Below, piece by piece: positions 1,567-38,509 of a stretch of DNA of 64,000 nt (position 1 is the first letter of the stretch; every line of letters starts with the position of its first letter). The notes beneath the pieces are model-generated. The model saw only the letters and a program-made list of their open reading frames with translations. It searched no databases and was not told the DNA's origin. The position numbers were made by a program, and so were the translations under genes. Source of the DNA: Terriglobia bacterium (GTDB lineage Bacteria; Acidobacteriota; Terriglobia; 20CM-2-55-15). Where the stretch lies: NCBI GenBank assembly GCA_965218585.1, contig CBDCLE010000019.1, positions 1 to 64,000 of the forward strand, read 5' to 3'.

Positions 1567-3585
1567 ATCTTCCCCGCCTCGACGGCGCGCCAATAGGGCA
1601 TCGTCTCCGGAAGGTAGTACGGCTTGAGATAGACGCGGACGGCGCTCGCCGCGCTGGTGCCGTCATAGGGCAGGCAGATTGCCTGGCAATTGGGAAGCAG
1701 GGCAAACTCCCTGGGCTGAAACAAGGCCTCCCGCTGTTCCCGGAATGACTTGCTGGTTCCAACCGAGCCCTGGCCGCCGCCGGCCTTGCCGGACAGGAGC
1801 GACACTTCGGCTTGCCGCGTCGACTCGGTGACGGTCCAGCTCGGCTTGATTCGGGCCACCTGCCCGCAGAGTTTCGAGGCAATTTCGGCGCTGGCGTCGT
1901 CGCTGAGGGAGAGGAAGATCCGGGTACGGAGGGTCTGAAGCAGCGCCCGCCAGGCCTCGGAGGTACCCAGCACAGATCGGAGCGAGGATATGGATTGGGT
2001 GGCGACGATGGGGATGACACGGCACTGCCGGGTGAGGGCAAACGCCTTCTCGTCTCCCGAGGGGTCGTCCTCGCCGACTGAGGCGAACGATTGATATTCG
2101 TCGCAAATGAAAACAGCGGGCCGGAAGTAACGCTTGGAGTCCGCTTTCATCCGTGCCGGCCGCCGGAGCAGGGTCTGGAGCCAGGCGTTTTTGAGGAACA
2201 CGCCCACGGCGCGGGCCAGGGCCGGATTCGATCCGGCGGGCATGTTGAGCGCGAGGACTTTCCCGGTCTCGATCAGCTCGTCCAGGGGTGGAAGATGTTT
2301 CCAGGTTCCTCCGGATTCTGTCGGTTCCCACTTCGGCCTCTCGGCCGTGTCCTCCACCGGCGGTGCCTGGGGGCAGAAAATGGAGGCGACGTCCTCCATG
2401 TCAAAGAGAGAGAGGAAACTGGAAATGCCCTCGACACATGAGGTCCGCAGTTTCGGATCCAGCTTCATCCAATCGTGGTCGTACCAGATCTTCACACTTT
2501 GCCATCGCGCGAGGAGACGTTCCGGTTTGGTGTGGCTCTTGGGCACGGTGACGCGGTATGGGATCCCCTCGGTTTGCAACCATTTCTCCAACGCAGGCGT
2601 CTTGATGGCTTTACACTCCCCATCTTCAAGTTGATCCCAGTTTCCGAAGGCGAGCAGCTCTTCCTTGCTCGCTGTCCAATCGTCCGCTGAAATCACAACT
2701 TCCCCATGCAACTGGATGTAGACAACAATGCCGGCCTCATCGATTTTTTGCTGGAACAGTTCAAGGTCGATCGCGCACCGGTAGACATCCTGCAAGGTCA
2801 CCCAGCGATCGGGAAAGATCCGGTACAGCTCGATGATCCACTTCACCAGGTTCGTGTAGGCCTGTTGCCAGAACGGGTCTTTCCCCTTGCCGAACAACTG
2901 ATTCAGTAGAGAGGAAACCGTATAAGCCAGTGAGTAGGAATCGAGCCAGTGGGCGGCCAGTGGGTTCCACTGATATTTGCCGTCCAGGCTCAGCTCCATG
3001 TAATCGTCTTCCCGGCCGGCCTGTTTCAGGATCTCCCGGATGTCGTAGCAGAAATCCCCTTTGACCTCGAGGACCAGGGCAGCGGCCCGGCTCTCGGGTT
3101 TTGTGGCTTGCCAGCTGAGCAATTGCCGGGCAAACGGGTGCATGCACGCCGAGGTCTTCCCGGAGCCGACCGCCCCGAAGATGGCGATTCCGGTATAGAG
3201 GCCCCGCTCCGGGATCACGAGCCAGTCCGGGGTCGGAATCTCCCAGGCCTCAACCGGGTGATGCGTCTCCCCCGACGACGATGGCCGGTTTCTCATCCGT
3301 GTCGGCAATCGGCCATGGGGGCAGCTCACCCTTGCCCTGTTTCTTCCGTGGACCGGGTTCGAACCAGACCCGCCAGACGTCCAAAACGAGCGTGCCACCG
3401 ATAAATACAACGGTGCCGGGCATGGCGGCATACCAACCGTGGATCAGCCACAAAAGCATGGGCGCATCGAGGGCCATCAGCGCGACGACGGGATTTTCAG
3501 ATCCGGGGGGAAACGGGCTCCACACATACCGGCCCGTCGAGGCGGCCACCGCCAGGACAAAGAGGACAATATGACTCCATCTCAT
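1563..3585 (-). CDS. VirD4/TraD-like type IV coupling protein; frameshift near 3270
   Basis: N-terminal TM segments (3250-3585 ORF) join the ORF with GAVGSGKTS, LEVKGD, ICDEYQ, VATQS at a G homopolymer. Confidence 0.8.
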
Positions 3586-23548: not shown

Positions 23549-24643
23549 TCAAGACTTGAGCGAGTTCGCGGCCGAACGATAAGCGTTGATGCCGAGAGCC
23601 TCCCGAATATCTTCCGTGGCTTCGAGGGTCATGGCTTCGGTGGGAAGACCGAGGCAGTTTGCAACCCGGTCGCTGTTGCTGAAACATCCGGCAATGATGG
23701 CGGAAACCGCAACCGCAGCCGGTCCAAGTTGCTCGGAAACGGCCGTTCTTGCACGGTTCAGCCTGCCCGGGTCATCGCCCAATACGGCGTCGGCAAAGTT
23801 CCGGAGTGCGGTGCCGCCGTCCACGCCGATCTCTATACCGGGCTCAACCAACCCCCTCAGGTTGAAGTCCCGTCCGATCACGCGGCCGCTCTCACGGAGG
23901 GCCATGGCGTGTCCGGAGGTTCAGTAAAAGCACTCGTTAACGGCCGAGACCCTGCCGGCGATGACTTCCGCTTGCGGGCGGGTCAGTGCTTCGTGATGTT
24001 GATAGTCGAATTCTGCGAATCGGTACGAGGGCAGGTATTGGACCTTGTCAGTCTCCAGGTGGGCACGCGTCTCGGGGGGCACGAGGCTGAGCGCCCGATA
24101 GATGAAATACATCATTTCTTCGCCGTACAATTCTTTAGCATCGTCGCCTCCGGGGGGGCCGGAAGGCACGGTGTCTACCCATGCTCCTTCGGGAATCGCC
24201 GCCGCCGGTCGCTGCCTGGATGGATCGCCTTCGCGAGGTGCGCCGATAGCCCGCGGTCCTACGCCAATGCCTCGTGCAATGACATCCATGCTTACGACGC
24301 GCCCCGTGACACCAACAACTTCAACATATTCGGCATCGGTCAACCCATCTTCCACGGCCTGATCATAGAATTCGCGGACGATGGTCCCCGGCGACACCGC
24401 AACCTCCCGCGCAACACGCTTCGCGGCAGAGGAGAGGTCTCGGCCATCGGTAACCGGGGCGGGCACGCCAGCGGCCTCCTGAACACCAGCTTCGATACGC
24501 GCAGCGCGTACCTCTTCGGCGAGCGCGACGCGCTGAATTCCCGTGAACCACGTCCCAGGTTCGCGGAGCGCATCGAGCTGGCGCGCATGGAGCTCCTCGA
24601 GGGCGGTGTCTACAGGGTATTCAGAATCACTGTACAAACTCAT
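23549..24643 (-). CDS. AhpD-like alkylhydroperoxidase-related protein, probable selenoprotein (UGA at 23921-23923)
   Basis: Two ORFs in the same frame separated only by TGA: RVSAVNECFY-U-TSGHAMAL gives CxxUxxxH; hairpin directly 3' of the UGA. Confidence 0.8.
23879..23911 (-). promoter_or_regulatory. Candidate bacterial SECIS
   Basis: CACGC-CAU-GGCC-CUC-CGUGA-GAG-C-GGCC-GCGUG stem-loop starting 9 nt after the UGA. Confidence 0.55.
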
Positions 24644-24870
24644 CCGCTCTGTCCTTTTGTATTGTAGTGATCGAATCGTTAAGGCCGTTTGAAGCCTACC
24701 AGAACGCGAATGTCTGCCCCAGCTACAAATCACTACATCAATGCGCTGATTAAGATGCGCCGATTGAAGTTGGGTATTGTAAGGTATGAGAGCCCCGCAG
24801 GTTCAGCGATGCCTGGCGTGGGATCCGAAGGACAAACAGGGAAAATTACGGCAGAGACAGAGCGATTGCG

Positions 24871-26067
24871 ATGATATCCGATTATCGAATCTGGCGCCTC
24901 CCGCAGCACGAGTGGTGCAAGCGGCTACCTATCGAACCTGCGGTTCAGATCGGCCAGCGGCTGTTCATTGCTGGACAAGTGGCGTCGTCCATTAGCGCCG
25001 CGTCGGCGGCGCAGGGGATCGAAGGCCAGGCAGTCGCGGCTTTCGAGCAAGTACGAAGTATCGTCGAACAGGCCGGCGGCTCGATGGCAGACCTTGTGAG
25101 CGTTACGTCTTTCACGAGAGACCCGCGCGACATTCCAACCGTTCTCGATGTTGGGGGTCGCTTTCTGAACGACCCGTATCCGGCCTGGACCGCGGCAAGC
25201 ATGATCGGGACCTTGAACACGGCAGACGACGTTGTCGTCAAAGCTGTGGCAGACCTGGGGCCGGGAGCGAAGACGAGTTACCGTCCCGAATCGTGCAATT
25301 GGATGAGCCCGTTCCCGATGGCCGCCGGATGCCGCAAGGGAGATATCCTCAGTATCGCGGGACAGACAGCGGCCGCCAGTGACGGAACAATCACACCACC
25401 TTTCGACCACTTGGAACAGGCTACGATAGCGTATCGAAGAATGAACGATGTTCTCGTCGAGGCCGGCGGATCATTCGAAGACGTTCTCGATTTCACCTCG
25501 TTTCATCAAGATATCCGCGGCGCTGAAGCGACACTTCTTGATGTGTATATGCCCACCGTAATGGCGGGCGCGACCAGCGAGACGGCGGCGACGACGAGTC
25601 ACATCGGCGTACCCGGACTGGTTGCGCCGGGTGTGATCGGTTGCTACTCGGCGACCGCTGATCTCTCTGACGGTGAGCGTCTGGGATCCACTCCAGACTC
25701 GATCTGGTGGAAAGGGATATACGCGATCTCCGGCGGCGCAATGAAGGCTCGCGGGTCCATAATTACGATTGCGGGCCAGGTCGCTTCGGCTTCTGACGGT
25801 TCGCTTGTGGGCGCCGGCGATCCCGACCGACAGGCCCACTACATCTTCTCCGCCATGAGGGAGATCCTCGAGGGATTCGATGCCTCGATGAAGAACGTCG
25901 CCGAAATCACTTCGTTTCACAAGGACGCGCGATCGATCGAGGCGGCGATGGAGGTTGCGAGGGGCTACCTCGACGATGATCACCTGCCTGCGTGGACACC
26001 GATCGCAGTTCCCGGGTTGTGGGTGGAGGGGTTCTTACATGAGATCGCGGCGGTCGCCGTCGTATAA
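24871..26067 (+). CDS. Rid (YjgF/YER057c/UK114) protein with three tandem domains
   Basis: Three repeats of IAGQ..Q....G.S..D/N....TSF. Confidence 0.8.
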   Translation: MISDYRIWRLPQHEWCKRLPIEPAVQIGQRLFIAGQVASSISAASAAQGIEGQAVAAFEQVRSIVEQAGGSMADLVSVTSFTRDPRDIPTVLDVGGRFLNDPYPAWTAASMIGTLNTADDVVVKAVADLGPGAKTSYRPESCNWMSPFPMAAGCRKGDILSIAGQTAAASDGTITPPFDHLEQATIAYRRMNDVLVEAGGSFEDVLDFTSFHQDIRGAEATLLDVYMPTVMAGATSETAATTSHIGVPGLVAPGVIGCYSATADLSDGERLGSTPDSIWWKGIYAISGGAMKARGSIITIAGQVASASDGSLVGAGDPDRQAHYIFSAMREILEGFDASMKNVAEITSFHKDARSIEAAMEVARGYLDDDHLPAWTPIAVPGLWVEGFLHEIAAVAVV

Positions 26068-26163
26068 ACCTTCCGCTCTGAACTCCCGGCTTCATCCCGT
26101 AGCCGAGGCCGAATCGATAGGACCCTCGCCCGGTCGCAGTGATCACATGTGGAGGATTTAGCC

Positions 26164-26916
26164 ATGGGTCTGGAAATCTCCTTGGCCGGTAAGGTAGCGC
26201 TGGTAACGGGCGCGAATTCGGGTATCGGTCGTGCCATCGCAGTGAGTCTCGGTCGAGCCGGGGCCTCGGTGACGCTCGTCGGCCGCGACCAGTCACGTCT
26301 CGATCAGGCGGTCGCGCTCGTTGAAGCGGAAGGAGCCGCGGCTTGGGGCGTCGCGCGTGACCTCAAAGATGAACAGGGCCACCATGAGATGGTGTCGGCA
26401 ACCGTCGAACGATTCGGTGGCCTTGATGTCCTCGTGCACTCGGCGGCCGTGTGGGTTCCCGAGCCGTTCGCCGAGACGACGCTGTCATCACTGGATGATC
26501 ACTGGAATGTGAACGTGCGTGCCCCCTTCTCGCTGACCCAGGCCGCCCTGCCTCACCTTCGTGGCGGAGGCTCGGTCATTTTCATTTCCTCCATATCGGG
26601 TAAGGTTGGTGATCCGGGGTTTTCGGCCTATGCCGCCACCAAGGGTGCTATAGAACTCCTGACCCGCGTTCTCGGCAAGGAGTTGATCGAGGATGGCGTG
26701 CGAGTCAACGCGGTTGCACCCGGTGTAACCGCTACCGAAATGAACGCGGGACCGATGTCCGATCCGGTTTATAAGGCGGAGGTAGAGGGCATGATCCCGG
26801 CCGGCCGCCTCGGCCGGGCCGAGGAAATTGCGCCCCTGGTCACGTTCCTGGCCAGCGAGCATTCAACCTACATAAACGGGATGAGTTATGGCGTCGACGG
26901 GGGTTGGACGGCTTAA
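26164..26916 (+). CDS. Short-chain dehydrogenase/reductase
   Basis: TGANSGIG, YAATK, VRVNAVAPG, VDGG. Confidence 0.93.
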   Translation: MGLEISLAGKVALVTGANSGIGRAIAVSLGRAGASVTLVGRDQSRLDQAVALVEAEGAAAWGVARDLKDEQGHHEMVSATVERFGGLDVLVHSAAVWVPEPFAETTLSSLDDHWNVNVRAPFSLTQAALPHLRGGGSVIFISSISGKVGDPGFSAYAATKGAIELLTRVLGKELIEDGVRVNAVAPGVTATEMNAGPMSDPVYKAEVEGMIPAGRLGRAEEIAPLVTFLASEHSTYINGMSYGVDGGWTA

Positions 26917-27117
26917 AGAAAACCTCTCGATAAACGTTGTCAAGCAAGTGTGCAGCGCCGTAAGGTTTCATCCTACAGCTGTCCGGGAGACGAGAGGTGC
27001 TCTCGGGCCGACCGAAGGGATGTAGCCTGATCCCGGAAGCCGGAACCCGAGTGCTCGTTTGATCGTGATGTCAGACGGAGATGGCACCTCGTTCAACGGT
27101 GAAACAGGAGGAATCAA

Positions 27118-27921
27118 ATGATATACACAGAGAATAGGCCGTTAAGACAGAACATTTCGCGAATAGTTGTGCGAGTGGCCTTCCTGGTTGTGGTTGCGGG
27201 GTGTTCTCTCCTGACCCTTCAAGCTCGACAGGTGGACACTTCTCCAACGCCAAACCTGTCTGAAATTTGGAATCGCACCGGATGCATGCCGAATGGGTTC
27301 AGCTGTCCCTTCGATCTCACCGCACTCCCGTTGACGGCCAGGGCGAACGGTTTCCGGCAGGCGTTCGATGAAGTGCTGGGTCCGAAGTATGATTGTGTCC
27401 AGGCGACAATACCCTCGCTGATCGTCGATCCCTACAATTTTCGGATCGAACAGATGGAGGATCGCATCATTTTTACGTACGAGAAGGACGATGTAGTTCG
27501 CACTGTCTGGCTGGAAGGACATGGGCATCCTGATCCCGGCCCCTACGATTCGACTCACCATGGGTATTCGAAGGGCAGTTACGAGAACGGTGAGCTGACC
27601 ATAGAGACGACGAAGTTCCTTTTTGATCCTACGGGACTCGACGATCTATCCAATGTACCTTCGTCAACATTGAAGCGGGTTGTGGAACGTTACAGCAGAG
27701 CAGGTGATCTTCTGAACGTAGAAGTGACGGTCGAAGACCCACTGATGCTCACCGAACCCGTCCGGTTTACTTACGGCTGGGAACGGTCCCAAACCCCGTT
27801 GGTGCTTCCCTACGGATGCGATACCGAAGTCGCCAGACAGCCGACTGAGCTTCTGGCACCCATGTATCTCGATCCAGGATGGGTTCGGCTCCCAGCGCCG
27901 GCGTTTGAAATCTCTCAATGA
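27118..27921 (+). CDS. Secreted hypothetical protein (DUF6152 partner type)
   Basis: SD AGGAGG; hydrophobic N-terminus; HGYSKG.Y..GEL.IET, VVERYSR, VEDP..LTEP, YGC. Confidence 0.7.
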   Translation: MIYTENRPLRQNISRIVVRVAFLVVVAGCSLLTLQARQVDTSPTPNLSEIWNRTGCMPNGFSCPFDLTALPLTARANGFRQAFDEVLGPKYDCVQATIPSLIVDPYNFRIEQMEDRIIFTYEKDDVVRTVWLEGHGHPDPGPYDSTHHGYSKGSYENGELTIETTKFLFDPTGLDDLSNVPSSTLKRVVERYSRAGDLLNVEVTVEDPLMLTEPVRFTYGWERSQTPLVLPYGCDTEVARQPTELLAPMYLDPGWVRLPAPAFEISQ

Positions 27922-27993
27922 GCGACGTCTTTCACCAAGTGCCGTATTCTCGTCTGTCAGAGTTGCGGTGGGACCGAACAGGAGGTTGAAGAA

Positions 27994-28386
27994 GTGAGAC
28001 TATTTGCGTCGATGCTATTGACTCTCTTGGTAGGAATGCTGGCTGTGATGGTTCCCGCCGAAGGGCATCATTCACAGGCACCGTTCTTCGATCAGAATCA
28101 GGTTATCGAGATTGAAGGGGTTGTGCAGCGGTTCATATTCAGGAATCCCCATCCACTGATCTACATCGAGGTCACCGAAGAGAACGGTGAGAAGGTGGCC
28201 TGGTCGGTCCAGGGCGCCAACGCGACATCCATGAGCACCGACGGCTGGAGTGACGAAACGGTCGCAGTTGGCGAAGTGATCAGAGCAAAGGGGCATCCAT
28301 CGAAAGCACCGGGAACCCACGGCATTCAGTGTTTGGAGGTAGTCAAAGAAGACGGCACTGTGGTCCCAGTCCGGTGGGTCTTGTGA
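27994..28386 (+). CDS. DUF6152-like secreted protein
   Basis: Signal peptide then HHSQAPFFD, IEGVV, RNPH, W.V. Confidence 0.75.
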   Translation: MRLFASMLLTLLVGMLAVMVPAEGHHSQAPFFDQNQVIEIEGVVQRFIFRNPHPLIYIEVTEENGEKVAWSVQGANATSMSTDGWSDETVAVGEVIRAKGHPSKAPGTHGIQCLEVVKEDGTVVPVRWVL

Positions 28387-28659
28387 CCTGGCCTAGAAAT
28401 CCAGTCCCGTTCTGAGACTCTGGAAAAGCGAGGGTCGGCCTCGCAGAATCAGCCGTATTGATCTCTACTCAGGTCTCCATGACGACGACGGCGGCCGAGA
28501 TCGTCTGATCATGCGTCAGTAGTAAGTCGAAATTCACTACGTTTGATTCTCCCGATTACTCCTCGTCTTCTTTCAGCCCCGGTTTCCGCTCACGGTTCTT
28601 CGGCGGATTCCAAGCGGCCGACGTAGTTGGTAGTCGCTTTAAGCTTCCGGCCAGTGAGC

Positions 28660-28989
28660 TAATTTCGACCGTCACGGATCTAACGCGGTTTGCGGCAGCC
28701 CTTTTCAACGGCGGAGCTGCTTGAAGACGAAATGATTGAGGAAATGTTCACTGTCGTACCGGATAGTTCCGGACAGGTTCGCTTTACTCCGGGCTGGACT
28801 CCACGAGGTGAACAGCCCTACGGCCGGGTCTTTGATTTCAATGGGTCGATGGAAGGGACGACGGCGCTCATCGAGGTCGTGCCTGAGAGGCGGTATACGC
28901 TGGCCCTGCTTGCCAATCGTGAACGCTACGTTCCGGAATTGCTGCCAATCGCAAGCGAAGTGCGCAGTCTGGTGCTCGGCGCTCCGTAA
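28660..28989 (+). pseudogene. C-terminal remnant of a beta-lactamase-like serine hydrolase
   Basis: STVTDLTRFAAAL.., FNGSMEGTTA..PERRYTLALLAN; no N-terminus. Confidence 0.5.
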
Positions 28990-29001
28990 CACTTCGCGTC
29001 C

Positions 29002-29334
29002 TTAAGGGTTCGCTTCGCAGAACGCGATGGCTTCGGCAAGATCGGACTGCAACTGTTCGCCATCTGGAACCGTCAGTGGAGGCACAGCCTCGTAGTCCTG
29101 GCCGCACATTAAAATCAACCAGCCCTGATCGTTCGATACTCGCCGGTTGCTCCACAATGTTCGCTTGGATCTTCTCATGCTTAGGACGGATGCGTTGCGC
29201 CAGACGGTTACATACTGGCCAAAATATCTCTGACCTCGTTCGTCGAGTTCATATTTGGCATACAACTCAGACAGAGTTATCGGTTCGTCTTCATCTGCTA
29301 TTAAATCGTTTTCTTTCTTGGTTTCAGACATCAC
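29002..29334 (-). CDS. Hypothetical protein
   Basis: 110-aa ORF only. Confidence 0.45.
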   Translation of the reverse strand: MMSETKKENDLIADEDEPITLSELYAKYELDERGQRYFGQYVTVWRNASVLSMRRSKRTLWSNRRVSNDQGWLILMCGQDYEAVPPLTVPDGEQLQSDLAEAIAFCEANP

Positions 29335-29379
29335 AACTTGCGTCTAGAAGCGCAGCCGGAATGAGTGGCGCAAAGATGT

Positions 29380-29892
29380 TTACTCAGGCTCTATTTCTTC
29401 ATCCATAAATCGTTGAATCGCGCCATCGTCGAATTGAACTACATAGACGCGAGGGTCTGCCCTGGGTTGGTCTGGCTTTGCCTCTAATTGTGGCAAGTGA
29501 GAAATCCCGATGATGGACCCCGACTTGGCGAGCGACCCTTTTATGACTTTGACCCCGTCGTTGAGTTTGAATACGGAAATTCTGAGACCAACTACCTCCG
29601 CCAGCCGTTTCCTTAGCAATAGCAGGTGTGGGTCCGGCTCGCGCTGTCCATCCACCGGTCGCCATGTAGAGTCGTTTGAAGCGTCAAGCAGGTCTCTGGC
29701 ATCGGTCTCCGACAACCCCAGTGTATTGGCTGCTTCCATGCACATGGCGTCACCATACGGCGTGCCTGTCTGTATGTAGCAAACCGTTCCAATCGCTTCG
29801 AATACCAAGCCCTCGGGTCCATCCTTGGCAGTTCCCCGGATCCACATGCGCGGTTGAGATCTTTTCTCTGATCCAGAGCCGGTATCGGGCAC
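29380..29892 (-). CDS. Hypothetical protein, possibly 5'-truncated by the IS5 element
   Basis: 170-aa ORF starting beside the IS end. Confidence 0.45.
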   Translation of the reverse strand: MPDTGSGSEKRSQPRMWIRGTAKDGPEGLVFEAIGTVCYIQTGTPYGDAMCMEAANTLGLSETDARDLLDASNDSTWRPVDGQREPDPHLLLLRKRLAEVVGLRISVFKLNDGVKVIKGSLAKSGSIIGISHLPQLEAKPDQPRADPRVYVVQFDDGAIQRFMDEEIEPE

Positions 29893-29927
29893 AAGTTTCC
29901 ACTCGAACAGATGCTGAAATTTTGCTA

Positions 29928-30741
29928 GAGCGTGTTAACACTAACGTAGTGCCTCGACGATGAGTGCGAAGTGAAGGAAGGCGAGGAACATGACGTCGAG
30001 TTTATCGAAATGGGAGAAGATACGCCGAAAACCCTTGAGTCGGCGGAAGAGCCTCTCGACTTCGTTCCTGCGGCGGTAGAGCACGCGGTCGTATTCCCAC
30101 GGCTCCAGGCGGTTGCGCTTGGGCGGCACGACGGGAATCCACCCAAAATCCAGAGCCAATTGGCGGGTCTGGTCGTCCTGGTAGGCACGGTCCATCAGCA
30201 GCGGCAGCGGCGCGGGCAACGGCCCCAGGCCGGCGAGCAGATCGCGGCCCTGCGGGGCGTCGTGCGCTTGGCCGGGCGAGAGCGCAAACGTTATCGCCGT
30301 TCGAGCATTCGCGGCAACCAGATGAATCTTGGTGGTCCATCCACCGCGGGATTTGCCGATCGCTTGCGGACCGTTTTTTTTAACGCTCCCGTGCCGTCGG
30401 GATGCACCTTCACAATGGTCGAGTCCATCGAAACGGCTTCCACCCGGATGCGCACCAGTTGCTCGCGCTGGAGTTTTTCGAAGACGGCGTCGAGCACCCC
30501 GTTCTTGGACCAGCGGTTCATCCGGGTGTAGATGGTGTGCCAGTTGCCAAAGCGCTTGGGCAGACCGCGCCACTTGCAGCCCTGCTCAGCCACATACAAA
30601 ATGGCGTTCAAGACCGTCAGGTTCGAAAGACTGACGTTGCCCCGCTGACGCGGCAGTTCCGGCTCGATGCGACAATACTGCTCCTGTGTGATCTCCATGC
30701 CTGATTATAAAACATTCATGCTCATTAGTGTTAACACGCTC
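29928..30741 (-). mobile_element. IS5-family element (IS427-like)
   Basis: Perfect IRs GAGCGTGTTAACACTAA in CTAG context at both ends; two-ORF transposase. Confidence 0.93.
29941..30698 (-). CDS. IS5 transposase with probable programmed -1 frameshift at the A run near 30375-30382
   Basis: GCKWRGLPKRFGNWHTIYTRMNRW, MDSTIVKVH; GKSRGGWTTKIH, MDRAY, YRRRNEVERLF. Confidence 0.9.
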
Positions 30742-30893
30742 TAGTTCACTTATGAGTTCTGAGGAAGTCATCGGGGTTAGCGTGAAAGACATTTCTCTGG
30801 GGATTATCCCGACCAGAAAATGTTCTCTGAAAACGTTTGGTTCCGGTAGATTGAAAGCCAACAAGAACTACTGGGCCCTCGGGGTGAGGAATC

Positions 30894-31220
30894 TCAGCTA
30901 TTGAAACCCCCAGCCGAAAACGATGAACTGTTTTGGGGAAAAAGCAACCCGGCGATAGTTCCCGCGGTTTTTTCTACTCTCTCTCGTCGGTGTTCTGGCA
31001 CTTGTCTTGCATAGGCCATAACGGCATCTAGAGCTGCTTCAAGATGAGCTGGACTCACCTCAAGATCCTGACTCGCTTCTGCCTCTTGGAACGTTTGAGA
31101 AGTCTCCCGAAAAAGTTGTATCCGGTCAGGAGCGCTTGGCGCAAATAGCATCAAGGCATCAGTCACAATAGCCAAGTCCCGCCGATCCAGCTGAGCTTTC
31201 AAAATGCTCTCCCCGATCAC
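30894..31220 (-). CDS. Hypothetical protein
   Basis: 108-aa helical-looking ORF. Confidence 0.45.
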   Translation of the reverse strand: MIGESILKAQLDRRDLAIVTDALMLFAPSAPDRIQLFRETSQTFQEAEASQDLEVSPAHLEAALDAVMAYARQVPEHRRERVEKTAGTIAGLLFPQNSSSFSAGGFNS

Positions 31221-31569
31221 ACTAAATTGCTGGAATTATAACAATTATAGGTCTATGTTGGTAGGTGGATTTCTCGGGACCCATGCTCAAGAGGCCATCT
31301 TCAGTTTGCGGTTGGTGGGTGGCTGTTTGGCGCGGAGTGATCGTCTGACACGTGAGCTAGAGAAGCAAAAAGCCGAGCGGTTGGCTCGGCTTTTTCTAGA
31401 TTTCTTCCATTGTATGTACAAGTTTGGCACGAATCTGCCCAGGATAACCGCAAAGTATGACGTCCCTTGGACAAATGGCCTCACCAGAAGTTCGCCACGT
31501 TGATTTCTTGAATTGTGAAAGAGTGACCGCGGCAGATGAGACACTATCCCTTAGGCGGCAGGAGAATCC

Positions 31570-31730
31570 ATGCAGACTCCCAGGGAAGTGGTCCAGGCTT
31601 GGGTAGACGCGTTCAACCGCGCTGACGCGGACGCGGTGGCTTCCCTTTACACTAAAGATGCCACCAACCACCAGGTTGTTCGTGATCCCGTCGAAGGTCG
31701 ACCTGCGATTCATGGGAAATTTTTAGGGAC
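31570..31730 (+). pseudogene. Truncated SnoaL/NTF2-like protein
   Basis: SD AGGAG; MQTPREVVQAWVDAFNRADADAVASLYTKDATNHQV..VEGRPAI, then similarity is lost near the transposon end. Confidence 0.65.
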
Positions 31731-31760
31731 TCTACCGTTAGAGCCTGACACGTTGACTTG

Positions 31761-33616
31761 TGTCCAACGTCAATCAGAATTCCTTCTCGCATTGACTCAT
31801 TGAAAATGTTACCGAACTGAGGGTTGTTGCCTCATTAGAAATGTTACCCAACTCTATGAGAACGGAGGTGGGAAGTGAGGACACACATGACTGTTGCGGC
31901 AAGGCGAGAATTAGCTCTACGAACGGCGGTTCGCTACAAGAATGCGGCGCGACCGGAGAAGAAGCGAATCCTGGATGAGTTCCTTGAATCGACCGGGTTC
32001 CATCGGAAGCACGCGACACGGCTTCTGAACGACATTCTGAGGGGCGAACGGCCCCGACGGCAACCGCGCGGCCGGGTCCGTCGATACGGCCCCGCGGTGC
32101 AGGCCGCCCTGATCGCGGCCTGGCGCACAGTCAATGATGTCTGTGGCAAACGGCTCGTTCCGTTTCTGCCGGAGCTGATCCCGACCATGGAGCGTCACGG
32201 GCATCTGTCATTGTCTGATAAAACGCGGGCGGATCTGCTTGAGCTGAGCGCCGCCACGGCTGATCGGATCTTCCGTCAATTCCGATTCGATCATCGACCG
32301 CACGGCAAGACCACCACCAAGTCCGGACAGTTACTCAAACACCGCGTTCCGATTCGCACATTCGCCGACTGGGCGGACACGCGGCCGGGATTCATGGAAG
32401 CGGACTTGGTTGCACACTGCGGCGGGAACTCGGAAGGCCCTTTCCTCCACACCCTGGTACTGACCGACGTGGCGACCGGCTGGACCGAATGTCTGGCGTT
32501 GCTACGGCGTACGGAGGCGGACATTCTGCAGGCGCTCACGACGGCACGGCAGATCCTTCCGTTTCAGCTTGTCGGCCTGGACACGGATAACGGTTCCGAG
32601 TTCATGAACTACGGACTCCTCGCCTACTGCGAGCGTGAAACGATTCAATTCACCCGAGGCCGGGCGCGCCGGAAGAACGACCAGTGCTTCGTCGAACAGA
32701 AGAACGGCTCGATCGTCCGCCAATTGGTCGGCTACGACCGCTACGAAGGCTCACTGGCATACAGGCAGCTTGCCGAGCTCTACCGAGTGGTCCGGCTCTA
32801 CGTGAACTTCTTCCAGCCGTCCATGAAGCTCACGACGAAGACTCGCGATGGATCCCGGGTGACGAAACGCTACGATATCGCGCAAACACCCTATCAACGG
32901 CTCTCGAATTCGGATGCGCTCGACCCGGAGGTTCGCGTTCGCCTTGCTGCGATTTATGAACGTTCGGATCCGGTCGATCTCCTACGACAGCTTGAGAAAC
33001 TCCAGGATGCATTCTGGAGACATGCGAAGGAACTGGCCTCTCCCACGCTAACGGACGACATCGTGCGCGCCGCCCTTGTGTCCCCGAACTGCGACGCAGA
33101 TGCAGACCGAGCCCCGATTGAGGCGGAACTCCCCGATCCCGGCTTCGAGCAACGAATCACGCGTCGGTATCGCAAAACACGGAAACAACCTGTGCCCCAC
33201 ATCTGGCGTACTCGCCCGGACCCGTTCGACGGCGTCTGGGAGGAGATGCGGTCATGGCTTGAATCCGATCCCGGGCGAACATCAAAGTCGCTGTTGCTTG
33301 AGCTTCAGCAGCGGCGCCCGGGACGTTACCCCAACGGTCAGTTACGGACCCTGCAGCGGCGCGTGCGCGAATGGCGGCGTCAGATTCTGGAGACTTTCGA
33401 TGGCGAGTGGCTCGAACTGGATCGGGTCCGCCCGGCTTCAGCATCTGCGGGCGACGGGGGCTGTGGAAAAGGCGGTCGCCCCACAGCCTCGACGGCGGGA
33501 AGAACTCTCCCGTTTGACCGGTCGTTCGGTAACATTTCTAATGAGGCAACAACCCTCAGTTCGGTAACATTTTTAAATGAGGCAATACGAGAAGGAATTC
33601 TGATTGACGTTGGACA
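31761..33616 (+). mobile_element. rve/DDE transposable element with ~88-bp terminal IRs (TGT...ACA)
   Basis: 31761-31848 nearly matches the reverse complement of ~33528-33616; two TTGCCTCATTAGAAATGTTACC-like sites per end; no target duplication. Confidence 0.9.
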
Positions 33617-33845
33617 ACGCCCACAACGACTAGATCCAGCATCTCCGTACGCGAGTTCATCTGGACACGGCCCGCCCCGATCTGTCTCGATAGCGCCTGG
33701 TAGGCACCTAGCAGCAACTGTTGCCCCGTCTGGCCTCGAGCGTAGAACGTCCGGGATACCTGCGCTCCGCCGAAAGAACGGTTCGACAGAACGCCTCCGT
33801 ACTCACGAGCGAAAGGAACCCCCTGGGCGACACACTGGTCAATGA
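31888..33845 (+). CDS. rve-family transposase; ORF reads through the right IR, real 3' end probably near 33450-33530
   Basis: [40 protein letters not shown]-terminal [20 protein letters not shown]. Confidence 0.85.
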
Positions 33846-33940
33846 TGTTGAGGCTGATCTCGGCCAGACGATAGACGTTTGCCTCTCGCGACCGATAATC
33901 TCCACCTTTGATGGTGTCGTAGAAAAGACGAAACACGCTG

Positions 33941-33972
<32 letters not shown>

Positions 33973-34238
33973 TATTCCCCCTTGGGCTGCGATGCTATGC
34001 GCTCGGCGAGGGCTATCCTGGTAGCAGAAGCATTTGACGTTGTAGCCCAGTTCCGCTAGGGATGCCGCCGCCGCCGCACCCGCCAACCCGGAGCCGACGA
34101 CAATAACGCTGTGCCTGCGTTTGTTCGCCGGATTGACGAGCCTTAACCGAAACTGGCGTCGTTTCCACTTCTTCTCAATAGGGCCTGACGGAATTTTCGG
34201 CGATTACTCACTTCACACGCTCAAATCTGCATAGAGAT

Positions 34239-34287
34239 TTGCCACTAACTCCAGAAGCCCCTAGAATTATTACACTCTAGGGGCTTC
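34239..34287 (+). promoter_or_regulatory. Promoter TTGCCA-N17-TAGAAT for the tRNA, overlapped by a 12-bp inverted repeat
   Basis: -35 at 34239-34244, -10 at 34262-34267; GAAGCCCCTAGA (34254-34265)/TCTAGGGGCTTC (34276-34287). Confidence 0.6.
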
Positions 34288-34292
34288 ATTTT

Positions 34293-34378
34293 GGAGAGGT
34301 GGCTGAGAGGTTTAAAGCGGGTGACTTCTAATCACTTGTGGGCACAATCCACCGTGGGTTCGAATCCCACCCTCTCCT
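34293..34378 (+). tRNA. Class II (long variable arm) tRNA with Ser-type body and UCU (Arg) anticodon; CCA not encoded
   Basis: Acceptor GGAGAGG/CCTCTCC, D arm GCTGAGAGGTTTAAAGC, GGTGA-CT-TCT-AA-TCACT, V arm GTGGG-CACAA-TCCAC, T arm GTGGG-TTCGAAT-CCCAC. Confidence 0.9.
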
Positions 34379-34419
34379 CTAAGCTGCTCTCCCCAAATTC
34401 AATTTTAGTACGACTATCA

Positions 34420-35175
34420 TCACCGAAAGACTGTCATAGGGAAGGTCGAAAACATGAGGCCATCAAAGAATAATCCTATAGCACTTACCGGAGAATCACA
34501 GAACAATGTACCCCTCCTAATTATAAATTCATCCTCTGGAAGACTCAGTATCTCATCTATGAATAGAGTATGACTGCTCTTTGATCCAATAGAAAACTCA
34601 AAGAAGTATTCTTCTTTGTAGAATACTTCTATTGAGCAATTTGCATCTCTATTTTGGTCATTAGCAATTCCCACAGCCATACGCTGCCCAATCTCTACCC
34701 ACTGGTTAATCCACAATGTAAGAAATTCTCCTGGTTGGGAGGAAAAGACAGCTGCTATTCCATAGGGAAAATAGTTAGCGTCATAGAACCCATATTGTAT
34801 GAATGCTGCAACAGGAGCAGTACATTCCAAAGTAGCATATCCAGTCTCTATGTCACTACCAGCACCGGTAGTTCTTACCAACATATTTGGATTATTCTCT
34901 GGAAAAGTAAAAGCTGCCCCATCATCAATTATAGAGAATACCGGACTAGGAACAAGCCGATCTGAGCTTATCCCATAGAGAGTATAAGCACATCGAGGAT
35001 TGTTCGGATAGCTAGTATTGGTAAGGTATAAATGGGAGAAGAAGTGTGCCCCATCCCCAAACTCCCCATCTGCTATCACAGGAAATACATGATAGGTTTT
35101 GGATGTCTCATCTACGTTCTGTCCTAGCGCCGAAGCAGAAACCAACAGAAAAGATAACAAAGTTAGGAATTTCAT
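34420..35175 (-). CDS. Secreted beta-rich hypothetical protein (cassette cargo)
   Basis: Signal peptide MKFLTLLSFLLVSASALG; two similar halves each with a Cys pair and C(T/D)(A/S)PV. Confidence 0.75.
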   Translation of the reverse strand: MKFLTLLSFLLVSASALGQNVDETSKTYHVFPVIADGEFGDGAHFFSHLYLTNTSYPNNPRCAYTLYGISSDRLVPSPVFSIIDDGAAFTFPENNPNMLVRTTGAGSDIETGYATLECTAPVAAFIQYGFYDANYFPYGIAAVFSSQPGEFLTLWINQWVEIGQRMAVGIANDQNRDANCSIEVFYKEEYFFEFSIGSKSSHTLFIDEILSLPEDEFIIRRGTLFCDSPVSAIGLFFDGLMFSTFPMTVFR

Positions 35176-35193
35176 GGAAGGCTCCAATTGAAA

Positions 35194-35316
35194 TCCTATG
35201 CTGAGGGAATGGTACAGAAGAAAGCTATCAGGTAAGATACCGTCTAGGCTAACTCTTCCTCAGCATAGGAGGGTTAGCTCAGAACCCGCTCGGTGACTGT
35301 AACACTGGGCGGGTTC
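35194..35316 (-). promoter_or_regulatory. Structured 5' leader with mutually exclusive pairings
   Basis: Hairpins 35282-35316 and 35248-35278; 35258-35270 also pairs perfectly (13 bp) with 35194-35206 next to the RBS. Confidence 0.6.
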
Positions 35317-35361
35317 GTCCCAATCCCCTCATAATATCACACATGAGGTTTGCTCAATGAC

Positions 35362-35390
35362 TTGACTTTCACGACAAATCGTGCTCTAAT
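35362..35390 (+). promoter_or_regulatory. Promoter TTGACT-N17-TCTAAT with palindrome CACGA-N4-TCGTG in the spacer
   Basis: Read directly; lies just 5' of the structured RNA. Confidence 0.5.
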
Positions 35391-35405
35391 ACAAGCGGTG
35401 CGGTG

Positions 35406-35624
35406 CATGAATAGAATGAACCAGTCATATCACAAATTCTGAGAGAAAACAGCTCTCAGAAAAGGAGGTGCCATGTGAACGGATTTGGCGGACTACATGA
35501 ACCAACTCCTATAGTGTAGATGAGACGGACACAAGTGCAGGCATTTCTTAGGTTTGGTGGTTACTAATCAATGCCCTGTCCGCCTCATCAATCACCGAGA
35601 CATGACTGGTTCATTCTATTCATG
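35406..35624. ncRNA. Candidate structured RNA: 23-bp perfect closing stem plus three internal hairpins
   Basis: CATGAATAGAATGAACCAGTCAT (35406-35428)/35602-35624; hairpins 35437-35461, 35463-35510, 35519-35589. Confidence 0.65.
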
Positions 35625-35714
35625 AATCCTACATAGCAAATTTTCCCCCTTGCAATTTTCGTCCTTCATGTGCTAAAATCAGGTATAGGAAACGACGTAA
35701 GGAGGAAAGAAAAA

Positions 35715-35936
35715 ATGCAAGTTGGACCATCTATCTTATTGCGTGAAATACCACCCGATGGGATTCGTCTGATTCTCCAAAGTACAAATCAACCCCACGA
35801 CATCCCAGGGAAACGTCTCCTTTCAAAAGCTGAGGCTGCTCTTTTAGCTTTTGGGCTTCTTCTGGAGTTAGGGCACACCACGGACAATCAGATTCTTGAT
35901 TCTTTTCATTGGGCTGAGAAATTTCTGCAGCAATAA
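35715..35936 (+). CDS. Small hypothetical protein, 73 aa (cassette cargo)
   Basis: SD AAGGAGG; upstream TTGCAA..TGCTAAAAT promoter-like sequence. Confidence 0.6.
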   Translation: MQVGPSILLREIPPDGIRLILQSTNQPHDIPGKRLLSKAEAALLAFGLLLELGHTTDNQILDSFHWAEKFLQQ

Positions 35937-36009
35937 CCGAAGAGTGCGTCAAGTTAGTTGACATTTGCTTACCTCCAAGATAAGACGTTGGCAGTCAAGG
36001 AAAAGAGAA

Positions 36010-36228
36010 ATGCAATTCAGCATTGATCGCGTTCAAGGCTTAGTAAATAGAGTTGAACTTGCCGGATCGACTGGAAAGAACAAATTATTGTGCTTGAATT
36101 TTCACCTCGAACCACTACAGCTTCAGTATCTCCCCTTTCAACCTGAAGTCCTCCTTCTAATTGCACCCAACGAGGCACAGAAGCTATCCGACGATCTGCT
36201 AAAGCTTCTAATTCCGCATCAGAGGTAG
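36010..36228 (+). CDS. Small hypothetical protein, 72 aa (cassette cargo)
   Basis: Purine-rich RBS; stop codon overlaps the right IR. Confidence 0.5.
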   Translation: MQFSIDRVQGLVNRVELAGSTGKNKLLCLNFHLEPLQLQYLPFQPEVLLLIAPNEAQKLSDDLLKLLIPHQR

Positions 36229-36281
36229 AGCGTGTCAAGTGAGTAATCGCCGAATTTTCGTGTCGAGTTTCATCAGTTGAT

Positions 36282-36944
36282 TCAGCTCACTACGCCGATC
36301 AGCATGGCGATCGGGATGGATATGTAGCCCAGGACGATGAGGGAGCTGACGACGACCGATCCGTGCCGAATCAGCGGATCATATCTGGAGTGATTGAGGC
36401 CCAGGGACTGAAACATGCTCCAGATCCCATGTCCCATATGAAGTCCGAGGCTTCCCACGGCTGCTATATAAAATATCGCTACAGGCCACTCCTGGAATCC
36501 TGTGACTACGTTTCGATAAACACTTTCCGCGTTGAAGTTCGGGTACGACGGATGAACCGTGCCGAACGTAAAGTGCAATAGATGGTAAATCACGAAAAGT
36601 GCGATGATGGGCCCGCTCCAAACCATCGTGCGAGACGCGTAACTCGCGTCCCTGTATTTGTGGCGTTGGTAGGGCACAGGGCGGGCCGATCGGTTCCGAG
36701 TCGCAAGATGCACTGCGGCCAGGACGTGAAAGCCGACCGCGCTAACAAGGGAGATTCGGGCGGTCCAGAGGAACTGTGGCGTTCCCTTCAGCAGCTTTGC
36801 CCAAGCGTCGAGGGTTTCCGGACCTGCGAAGATCTGGAGATTTCCGGCCAGGTGCCCAATGATGAACCCGAAAAGGACAATGCCGGTCGCGACCACCACG
36901 ATCTTCTTGCCGAGGGATGAACGATAAAAGCCGGGAATCCACAT
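36282..36944 (-). CDS. sdhC: Succinate dehydrogenase cytochrome b subunit
   Basis: SSLGKK..TG..HLAGNL, ASRTM, HLLHFT, HMGHGIWSMFQSLG; directly upstream of sdhA. Confidence 0.9.
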   Translation of the reverse strand: MWIPGFYRSSLGKKIVVVATGIVLFGFIIGHLAGNLQIFAGPETLDAWAKLLKGTPQFLWTARISLVSAVGFHVLAAVHLATRNRSARPVPYQRHKYRDASYASRTMVWSGPIIALFVIYHLLHFTFGTVHPSYPNFNAESVYRNVVTGFQEWPVAIFYIAAVGSLGLHMGHGIWSMFQSLGLNHSRYDPLIRHGSVVVSSLIVLGYISIPIAMLIGVVS

Positions 36945-36952
36945 CGCGCTTT

Positions 36953-37453
36953 CTATTCCAGGAATGGCTGGCTGGTGTCTTCAGTTGCGGCTTCGAGATC
37001 GTGCTCAATGATAGTGCGCGCACAGGCGTTCCACCTCAGCAGCGCGTCGTCGTTGCCCGGAGGGCGGTTCTGCTCCGATTTCTCATACCAGTCCATGGCC
37101 TTACGGAGCCAATCGTAGGCTACGTATCCGGACCCATGGGACCCCTGCTTGAGATGAGCCCGGCCGCGTCTCTCAGAGACGAGGCCTGAATAATAGGTTC
37201 TTTCGTACTGGTCCCGAATCCTGGGAAGCAAGTCTCGAGCCCGGGTATATGTGTCCCGCTCACTGTGAGAGAACTCGTCCGTGAGTGCGAGAAGGAGTAC
37301 GACGAGCGCCTCCTGGTTTTCCGGGTCGATCTCGAGAATGTCCAGGCAGATGCTCTCCGCCTGCTCGGGTTCGTTCAAGAGGCGGTACTTTTTCGCCCGT
37401 TCGAGAGCTCGGAGTAGGGTTTCTCCGGATAAAGGCTTGAATTGAAACTGCAT
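36953..37453 (-). CDS. TPR-like conserved hypothetical protein
   Basis: YRLLNEPEQAESICLD..GNDDALLRWNAC. Confidence 0.7.
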   Translation of the reverse strand: MQFQFKPLSGETLLRALERAKKYRLLNEPEQAESICLDILEIDPENQEALVVLLLALTDEFSHSERDTYTRARDLLPRIRDQYERTYYSGLVSERRGRAHLKQGSHGSGYVAYDWLRKAMDWYEKSEQNRPPGNDDALLRWNACARTIIEHDLEAATEDTSQPFLE

Positions 37454-37699
37454 CTGTGGTTTTTAGCCGAATGCCGAAGGGCTCATCGAATAGAGATGAG
37501 CATAGCGACGAACTCCCAGAATGTTCCGAAAAAGACGGGATCTTTTGTCTAGCATCTGCACAAGGCTTTGTCGGGTTTGTCAACAGGTCCTCGTGGAGTT
37601 CTTTTGACCTGTGGCCTGCGAAGCCAGGGAGAGCGGACCGCAGAGGAAGAGGTGCTGGGGTGCCCATCGCGTCTACGGACTGTCAGCTTCATTGCTTTG

Positions 37700-38509
37700 T
37701 TATGCCTCACTTGAACTCAGGTCACCTTGACTAATTTCTTCGTATTCTCGCCGAATGACCTCTGCGCCGTATTTTCGCTCCAAGCGTCTGACGGTGAAAT
37801 GGCCGCATGCCATATCTTGAAAATGATTGATAAATACGAGATTGATCGCTGCGCCTCCAGCTCCGCCTATTGCGGGTACGGCTTGTGCAGCGAACTTCTC
37901 GGACACCGGCACACTGAATCGAGTGGCAACCTTCGTAATTAGTCGAACAATCGCGGGGGCACCTTCTGTGGCGAGCCCTTTTTTGGCTATGTATTTTGCG
38001 GCTTCAGAAACAGCTCGAGCTAGCGCGGCGCGTGTGGCGTAGTATCCGGTTTCTGCACCATCGTCGGCTTGTGAGTGCCCTCCAAGCGCGAACACCTCGA
38101 TGCACGCGAGCTGAGTGTCCGCCATACGAATATTCTCGCCCTCGCCACGAGCGATATCCGCTATCGAACGGAGCATGATGGTTGTCGACACGGGTAGCTC
38201 AATCGCCAATGCAGGAAGACCAAACGCACCACCAACTGCGCCACTCAGTGTCGTAAGTATCTTATGCGTGAGGTTGGACGGTCTTAGATCACGCTCGTTG
38301 TTCATAGTGGCAACGGCCAGTCGCAAGGAAGATTCGAGGGCGTTACGTGTAGCGTCCCCGATACGTCGGGAGACGGAATCGGGGAGTTTATCCACGGCAT
38401 GTTCGATCGGCTTTCCGATAAGGTTCGTGACCTCAATGGCGAAACCGGGATCCTCAAGGATGCCGACCGCATCTTTGAGAGCTTGAAGGTCATCGGCTTC
38501 AAGTTTCAT
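37700..38509 (-). CDS. EcsC family protein
   Basis: GAVGGAFGLPALAIELPVSTTIMLRSIADIAR, ACIEVFALGG. Confidence 0.8.
   Translation of the reverse strand: MKLEADDLQALKDAVGILEDPGFAIEVTNLIGKPIEHAVDKLPDSVSRRIGDATRNALESSLRLAVATMNNERDLRPSNLTHKILTTLSGAVGGAFGLPALAIELPVSTTIMLRSIADIARGEGENIRMADTQLACIEVFALGGHSQADDGAETGYYATRAALARAVSEAAKYIAKKGLATEGAPAIVRLITKVATRFSVPVSEKFAAQAVPAIGGAGGAAINLVFINHFQDMACGHFTVRRLERKYGAEVIRREYEEISQGDLSSSEA

Follow-up and report, generated by a model that had tools for sequence, protein, structure and literature searches.

Within a 64,000-nt stretch of Terriglobia bacterium DNA (contig CBDCLE010000019.1, positions 1 to 64,000; hereafter the window), the gene sdhA is interrupted by an AT-rich insert, which raises the question of how this insert arrived and whether the tRNA, the structured RNA and the proteins packed between its ends act together. 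An earlier note, made from the letters alone, had described a transposase-less cassette resembling the insertion sequence (IS) family IS1595, moved in trans, and had suggested that its cargo may be an undescribed translation-targeting defence or addiction system. Our analysis favours a more restrained explanation, to which we assign a probability of roughly 80%: a mobile insertion cassette (MIC) derived from IS1595, carrying loose passengers and recently arrived by horizontal transfer. The features that define the insertion, with the basis of each, are given here one per line.

34199-36251, IS1595-type cassette of 2053 bp, inserted in sdhA
34191-34198, no strand, left copy of the 8-bp target duplication, GAATTTTC (sequence reading)
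34199-34222, plus strand, left inverted repeat of IS1595 type, beginning GGCGATTACTCACTTC (inverted-repeat pattern search)
36228-36251, minus strand, right inverted repeat, beginning GGCGATTACTCACTTG on that strand (inverted-repeat pattern search)
36252-36259, no strand, right copy of the 8-bp target duplication, GAATTTTC (sequence reading)
33559-34190, minus strand, open remnant of sdhA (about residues 9-218), downstream of the insertion (list of open reading frames and orthologue comparison)
36260-36276, minus strand, start of the sdhA coding sequence, upstream of the insertion; end of sdhC at 36282 (sequence and list of open reading frames)

The two inverted repeats (IRs) are 24 nt long each and differ in a single place, a C/G at position 16, and their pattern did not occur in any of 100 dinucleotide shuffles of the window. 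The 8-bp duplication is perfect and stands immediately outside both ends. As a G follows on both sides, a duplication of 9 bp with GCG-starting ends is formally a possible reading of these letters, but 8 bp is favoured by the relatives, in which the ends start with GG and the duplications are 8 bp long. The insertion falls within the first codons of the minus-strand sdhA, just after sdhC (open reading frame (ORF) 36282-36944). When the flanks were joined by script with one copy of the duplication, the sdhA frame ran through 219 codons with 0 stops, and the joined N-terminus agreed with the N-termini of orthologues in three genomes of the same genus; over residues 1-190 of the fragment, same-genus orthologues are 94% identical. 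Both surviving pieces of the gene are undecayed, which argues that the insertions into it, of which a second is described below, are recent.

Furthermore, Logan contigs assembled from public runs of one study, among which the source sample may be, cross the left junction in two records (X1, 34130-34394; X2, 34006-34393) and the right junction in one (X3, 35134-38105). Apart from a gap of 3 nt in X2, at 34064, they agree with the window, and since both junctions are spanned, the insertion is not an assembly artefact. No empty-site joint was found among these public-run contigs, at a depth of 2-5, and no RNA run was among the sequencing runs that matched. Composition also sets the insert apart: its GC content is 0.435 vs 0.572 for the whole genome, and the profile descends from about 0.58 in the flanks to 0.39-0.47 within the cassette. 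A Pfam scan of the 5 cassette ORFs returned 0 families, hence no transposase; none of the 18 hits to PF12762, the IS1595 transposase, in this genome lies inside the cassette, and tblastn with all ORFs of the two resident IS1595 elements detected no transposase remnant (best E 0.026, over 11 residues). The length of 2053 bp, the 24-bp IRs with one mismatch, the perfect 8-bp duplication, the exact restoration of the sdhA frame on removal, the AT-richer composition and the absence of a transposase, all reported in the earlier note, were borne out, and its view of the cassette as non-autonomous with IS1595-type ends gained support from the elements described next.

The assignment of the ends to the IS1595 family is, on sequence comparison, well supported. 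Both resident elements encode PF12762 transposases. The one at C25:137652-139761 (2110 bp) has ends beginning GGTGATTATACACTTGAC, identical to those of the cassette at 15/18 terminal bases; it is flanked by an 8-bp duplication, GTTTCTCC, and contains a transposase of 297 aa and a passenger ORF of 307 aa. The other, a multi-copy element sampled at C2:289964-292661 (2698 bp), has related ends beginning GGTGATTATATACTTTAC, a 300-aa transposase and three passenger ORFs, with no matching duplication around this copy. The end type common to the cassette and its relatives is GGYGATTAY.YACTTSAC, and the search pattern GGYGATTAYNYACTTSAC, with at most one mismatch, occurred in 76/401 genomes of the phylum. 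Facing IR pairs with this end type, drawn from five other genomes, enclosed a PF12762 hit in every case (6/6). Six elements of 1.9-7.3 kb fetched from the phylum all carried perfect 8-bp duplications and extra ORFs; five of them belong to the PF12762-confirmed pairs covered by the Pfam check, and the sixth comes from G138. Counting the two resident and the six fetched elements together, 7/8 have perfect 8-bp duplications.

Compared with the features that characterize IS1595 elements, the cassette has the end type and the 8-bp duplication and lacks the PF12762 transposase. IS-type ends and a duplication around passengers, with the transposase absent, are what define a MIC, and since the cassette shows exactly this arrangement it is best labelled a MIC of the IS1595 family. 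Siguier, Gagnevin and Chandler reportedly described, in 2009, IS1595-family insertion sequences carrying passenger genes. Such elements resemble the cassette in their GG-starting terminal IRs of one type, their 8-bp duplication and the passengers inside, but they have a transposase, whereas the cassette has a tRNA among its cargo and exact ends seen nowhere else. MICs, exemplified by MIC231, which derives from IS231 in Bacillus cereus, likewise hold genes unrelated to transposition between IS-type IRs and a target duplication and lack the transposase; in contrast to them, the cassette derives from an IS1595-type element, in a different phylum, and its trans-mobilisation is presumptive. Passages in the literature already set out the MIC concept, for instance for MICs that carry qnr.

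Two further observations concern this group of elements. Passenger ORFs of IS1595 elements from different genomes (L023, 476-1399; L099, 174-776; L102, 1389-2075) share an N-terminal R.LRE.EW..SL followed by a membrane segment, which suggests a conserved passenger family in this IS subgroup. In addition, the host genome holds at C20:80002-80045 (303-346 of locus L061) a 44-bp perfect palindrome in which two IS1595-type ends face each other with 4 bases between them, possibly a minimal end-to-end relic, or else a tiny miniature inverted-repeat transposable element.

We also searched for sister copies and for a helper element. The whole cassette, compared with its own genome, found just itself and short tRNA or self-inverted matches, with no second copy. 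Compared with 60 relatives, it matched 57/61 genomes, solely within the tRNA (query positions 98-207); it had no match among plasmids and matched five phage records, solely at a tRNA-Ser of 77% identity. A 22-mer of the cassette IR gave 0 matches each in the genome, metagenome and viral contig collections, as did a 23-mer of the tRNA anticodon arm in the viral contig collection. A fuzzy IR search of the genome, allowing up to 7 mismatches, returned chance-like matches and the related resident IS at C25 only. Of 400 phylum genomes, two (G193 and G099) had a near match to the cassette 18-mer; each was single, lacked a partner IR and was set aside as chance.

Several of these results weigh against the explanation that we prefer. 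Neither a partner IS with the exact ends nor a sister cassette turned up in anything searched, and because no such IS was found we infer, rather than observe, that the cassette was mobilised in trans. Its similarity to the resident ISs ends after the terminal ~18 nt, and the resident transposases, whose own ends differ at 3/18 terminal bases, may fail on the cassette ends. The count of 16 end-pattern matches in the host genome (G000), vs 0 for a reversed control pattern, is biased by 2, the pattern having been built partly from the cassette. Moreover, none of the eight related elements examined, two resident and six fetched, contains a tRNA, so the cargo is atypical for the group. The earlier note had looked to an autonomous partner or sister cassettes, and had named as its own refutation that no IS1595 transposase shares these ends. 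This holds for the exact ends, which occur nowhere in what was searched, and does not hold for the end type, which is borne by PF12762-encoding elements both resident and elsewhere in the phylum.

We propose that the cassette arose as a non-autonomous, passenger-carrying derivative of an IS1595-family element, from a parent subgroup with the above ends that is common in the phylum and usually holds its passengers beside the transposase. Horizontal transfer from a donor of lower GC would have brought it in. At 0.52, the GC content of the resident IS1595 elements is nearer to the genome value than that of the cassette, which fits a separate and recent arrival of the latter. A DDE transposase supplied in trans, or the element's own transposase, later lost, would have carried out the insertion, which would have duplicated 8 bp in sdhA codons 8-9 and broken the gene in a recent event. 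The cargo would then be a loose set of separately transcribed passengers and not a demonstrated system, comprising a tRNA-Ser-derived UCU tRNA, the secreted protein P251, a hairpin-rich stretch and one or two orphan small proteins. Its parts are located as follows.

34239-34267, plus strand, promoter-like site TTGCCA-17-TAGAAT upstream of the tRNA, matching the consensus at 10/12 positions only (motif scan)
34293-34379, plus strand, class-II tRNA with a tRNA-Ser-type body, anticodon UCU, U73 and no encoded CCA (ARAGORN, Rfam, host alignment)
34423-35175, minus strand, P251, a secreted protein of 251 aa that has a signal-like helix at its N-terminus and a pair of beta-sandwich domains (ORF, AlphaFold, homology)
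35176-35345, minus strand, leader upstream of P251 with two hairpins (folding z -2.9; 1/200 shuffles folds equally well)
35406-35624, no strand, 219-nt hairpin region with a 26-nt closing inverted repeat (96%) and three internal hairpins (folding)
35650-35679, plus strand, promoter-like site TTGCAA-18-TAAAAT with TG, upstream of ORF-A (motif scan)
35715-35936, plus strand, ORF-A, orphan of 73 aa with AAGGAGG upstream (ORF, homology, structure)
36010-36228, plus strand, ORF-B, doubtful orphan of 72 aa whose stop codon runs onto the first base of the right IR (ORF, Atlas value)

The one unusual part of the cassette is its serine-type tRNA with an arginine anticodon. ARAGORN delineated a tRNA of 87 nt whose anticodon, UCU, corresponds to AGA (Arg); the Rfam tRNA model scored it at 62.1 bits vs a cut-off of 29 bits, with all arms present. 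The molecule has the canonical 7/5 shape (7-bp acceptor stem, 5-bp T stem), a long variable arm, U33, A37 and a normal T loop; those host tRNAs that were printed likewise lack an encoded CCA, except tRNA-Sec. A 12-bp hairpin at 34254-34287 overlaps the promoter-like site upstream. The nearest relatives were tRNA-Ser at all loci examined (7/7 among the relatives and 19/19 in the phylum), with anticodons GCU, UGA, GGA or CGA and 74-80% identity. Within the host, identity was 62-71% to the four tRNA-Ser, 44-59% to the Leu, Tyr and Sec tRNAs, and 53% to the class-I tRNA-Arg(UCU) of 74 nt. Its acceptor stem and T arm do not differ from those of host tRNA-Ser(CGA), and in both tRNAs one-base joints flank the variable arm in the same geometry.

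As a tRNA-Ser, the molecule has the class-II body with Ser-type variable arm and acceptor stem, and it lacks the combination of a serine anticodon (NGA or GCU) with G73; as a tRNA-Arg(UCU), it departs in not being class I and in having U, not A20, at position 20. Recognition by seryl-tRNA synthetase depends on the long variable arm, not on the anticodon, which makes serine at AGA/AGG the likeliest activity: if charged, the tRNA would most likely cause low-level serine insertion at these arginine codons. Since AGA accounts for 5.0 per 1000 host codons, or 6.3% of those for arginine, and the host possesses a tRNA-Arg(UCU) of its own, such insertion would amount to a partial Arg-to-Ser substitution. 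Two features speak against serine charging. The cassette tRNA has U73 where all four host tRNA-Ser have G73, and this may weaken its charging; furthermore, its C35 and U36 are determinants for arginyl-tRNA synthetase. Judged from these bases, the tRNA may instead be charged with arginine, or not be charged.

Mukai et al. (2017; PMC5389517) describe allo-tRNAs, the 9/3 ones of which include AGA/AGG anticodons, mention an irregular tRNA with U73, and report that irregular tRNAs of Acidobacteria adjoin toxin-antitoxin systems and transposable elements. Compared by the descriptions given there, the Acidobacteria allo-tRNAs share with the cassette tRNA a serine-type body, a long variable arm and a non-serine anticodon, and are unlike it in having a 12-bp acceptor branch arranged as 8/4 or 9/3 instead of 7/5.

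The largest gene of the cassette encodes P251, for which a full HMMER scan returned 367 representatives at E<=1e-3. Some of these relatives are stand-alone proteins of ~240-255 aa, and many are large, with the module present twice. Among eight large relatives scanned, five carried trypsin, matrixin, subtilase or M6 peptidase, leucine-rich repeat or immunoglobulin-like domains; the remaining three had no family, or one below its Pfam cut-off only. A word-based search recovered one relative, P0002, at 43% identity. Searching for related loci with P251 yielded one locus in genome contigs (L019) and none in metagenome contigs; in this locus, from a Sulfopaludibacter metagenome-assembled genome, two P251-type modules are part of a 746-aa M10-like protease. 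The same locus holds, at 2892-3006, an AT-rich hairpin of 42 nt, 98% complementary, directly after the protease gene.

The AlphaFold model of P251 is all-beta, with a predicted local distance difference test (pLDDT) score of 91.9. Residues 148-251 matched TM1070 (1nc7) with Z 15.2 and a root-mean-square deviation of 1.6 over 101 residues, and the C-terminal domain matched the Anabaena sensory rhodopsin transducer (2ii7) with Z 10.6; Foldseek with the whole of P251 gave low-TM matches only. The beta-sandwich of both proteins thus superposes on the P251 C-terminal domain, but sequence identity is 12-15%. Unlike them, P251 is a secreted protein with a pair of these domains, and its module family occurs fused to extracellular peptidases. 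Judged by its relatives, P251 is a stand-alone copy of an uncharacterised extracellular module common in large secreted proteases. It is probably an ordinary secreted accessory module, a binding module, and it is neither toxin-like nor defence-like.

The small proteins are less tractable. ORF-A and ORF-B found only themselves among 5.8 billion clusters, had no family in four libraries of hidden Markov models (Pfam, PADLOC, PHROGs and NCBIfam) and showed no mutual similarity, and their Atlas matches were without family. ORF-A was not found in 400 phylum genomes, bar one match at E 0.005 per genome, which is chance level. Its ribosome-binding site is a good one, its Atlas recognition value is 2531, which is protein-like, and its single-sequence model (pLDDT 79.6) has three strands and two helices, with no match in the PDB at E<=0.001. 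ORF-B has a value of 1042, like non-protein, and its reality is doubtful. The overlapping minus-strand ORFs (77 and 73 aa) are orphans too, and codon-position GC fails to settle the strand; they may represent the coding strand instead.

The ~540 nt that separate P251 from ORF-A contain no convincing ORF. Here the leader of P251 contributes a 13-bp perfect stem at 35194-35270 and a second hairpin at 35272-35335. The 35406-35624 region folds with z -7.3 and -8.7 on the two strands, a stability reached in 0/200 shuffles, and one of its hairpins sequesters an SD-ATG-TGA start-stop (SD, Shine-Dalgarno). Rfam gave no match at E<=1 for 35176-35640. We considered whether this region might be a retron-like non-coding RNA or a nested miniature transposon, and find either barely credible. 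On the plus strand, it combines a long closing stem with two short hairpins followed by a long one, the general layout of retron msr-msd RNA; however, the cassette is without a reverse transcriptase, the genome's 13 RVT_1 hits all lie on other contigs, and no guanosine comes right after the 5' arm. A nested transposon is contradicted by the absence of a flanking duplication, by the absence of another copy in the genome or in 60 relatives, and by a depth in the source runs that equals that of the flanks.

That the odd tRNA acts together with the structured RNA and the small proteins as a translation-targeting defence or addiction module, as the earlier note had proposed, we regard as very improbable. 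The five cassette ORFs had 0 matches in PADLOC, PHROGs, NCBIfam and Pfam (for PADLOC-DB 2.0, 0 families at E<=1), the largest gene is an ordinary secreted module, neither small protein has relatives, and ORF-B looks like non-protein. Co-occurrence of the cargo, which had been put forward as a check, could be read at a single homologous locus, L019, and this contains no other cassette part. The several promoters claimed previously lose force as well, since the cassette holds 3 promoter-like sites vs 3.9 +/- 2.1 in shuffles. The mismatch between the anticodon of the tRNA and its body was confirmed and speaks for such a module, as do the tight packing of the parts with separate promoter-like sites, the association of irregular Acidobacteria tRNAs with toxin-antitoxin systems and transposable elements in the passages of PMC5389517, and the fair confidence with which ORF-A folds from a single sequence. 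Tight packing with expression signals for each part would seem to fit a selected module too, which tells against loose passengers, and this compact, signal-rich layout is why a small probability of a system stays; as it is, the reading of the cargo as a new system is unsupported. A related view, that the cassette is a mobile vehicle for a canonical-shaped, promoter-equipped serine tRNA reading AGA/AGG, whose effect on the proteome, which the structured RNA and small proteins nearby might modulate, would be what is selected, has a small chance of being right; in that event it would be a transferable missense-decoding tRNA of another kind than the 8/4 and 9/3 allo-tRNAs.

The tRNA and the missing transposase invite simpler alternatives. 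Many phages and islands carry tRNAs that help to express AT-rich cargo, and a plain arginine tRNA for AGA could serve this end in a GC-rich, AGA-poor host. The UCU anticodon flanked by U33 and A37, the low share of AGA among host arginine codons and the frequency of AGA/AGG among the arginines of the cargo (4/7 in P251, 2/3 in ORF-B) agree with this idea, but the body is class II and Ser-like, D-loop position 20 is not the A that bacterial arginyl-tRNA synthetase uses, and the host already owns a tRNA-Arg(UCU), so that we consider it unlikely. Of the P251 AGA codons aligned with P0002, one stands opposite Ser and one opposite Pro, too few to infer the code. As for the origin of the cassette, a complete autonomous IS1595 with passengers could have inserted and then lost its transposase on site by internal deletion, without ever moving in trans. 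Related elements in the genome and the phylum all have a transposase beside their passengers, and no helper with the same ends resides in the genome, both of which such a deletion would explain; it is nevertheless quite unlikely, because no transposase remnant exists at any level, the space between the ends is wholly filled by other features, each with its own signals, and the low GC is uniform over the whole 2 kb.

An IS1595-derived cassette with loose passengers is, as an element, ordinary, given that transposase-less cassettes with IS ends are known and that IS1595 passengers are common in the phylum. What is unusual is the presence on a mobile cassette of a well-formed serine-type tRNA with an arginine anticodon and an upstream promoter-like site. 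Should this tRNA be charged with serine, tRNAs that alter codon meaning could spread on simple transposons, beyond chromosomal residence, and the cassette would offer a small, clonable test case for natural mistranslation.

The surroundings of the cassette have been struck repeatedly. An IS with an rve integrase at 31875-33560 of the window (ORF 31875-33845, plus strand; PF00665, E 3.6e-6) interrupts this sdhA as well, past residue ~190, and the remainder of the gene was not seen downstream in the ORF list for 24000-32500. The depth of this IS in metagenome contigs is 10-50x that of its flanks, which indicates that it is multi-copy or shared among organisms. The locus documents a recent double IS hit that destroyed the sdhCA operon. 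At 29941-30698, two overlapping minus-strand ORFs resemble an IS5-type orfA/orfB transposase and adjoin a lower-GC stretch (30400-31800), the region being an IS pile-up. Elsewhere in the genome, several of the RVT_1 hits (for example C1:61828, C4:44195 and C10:157301) are identical reverse transcriptase ORFs of ~450 aa, which are probably a multi-copy group II intron unrelated to the cassette.

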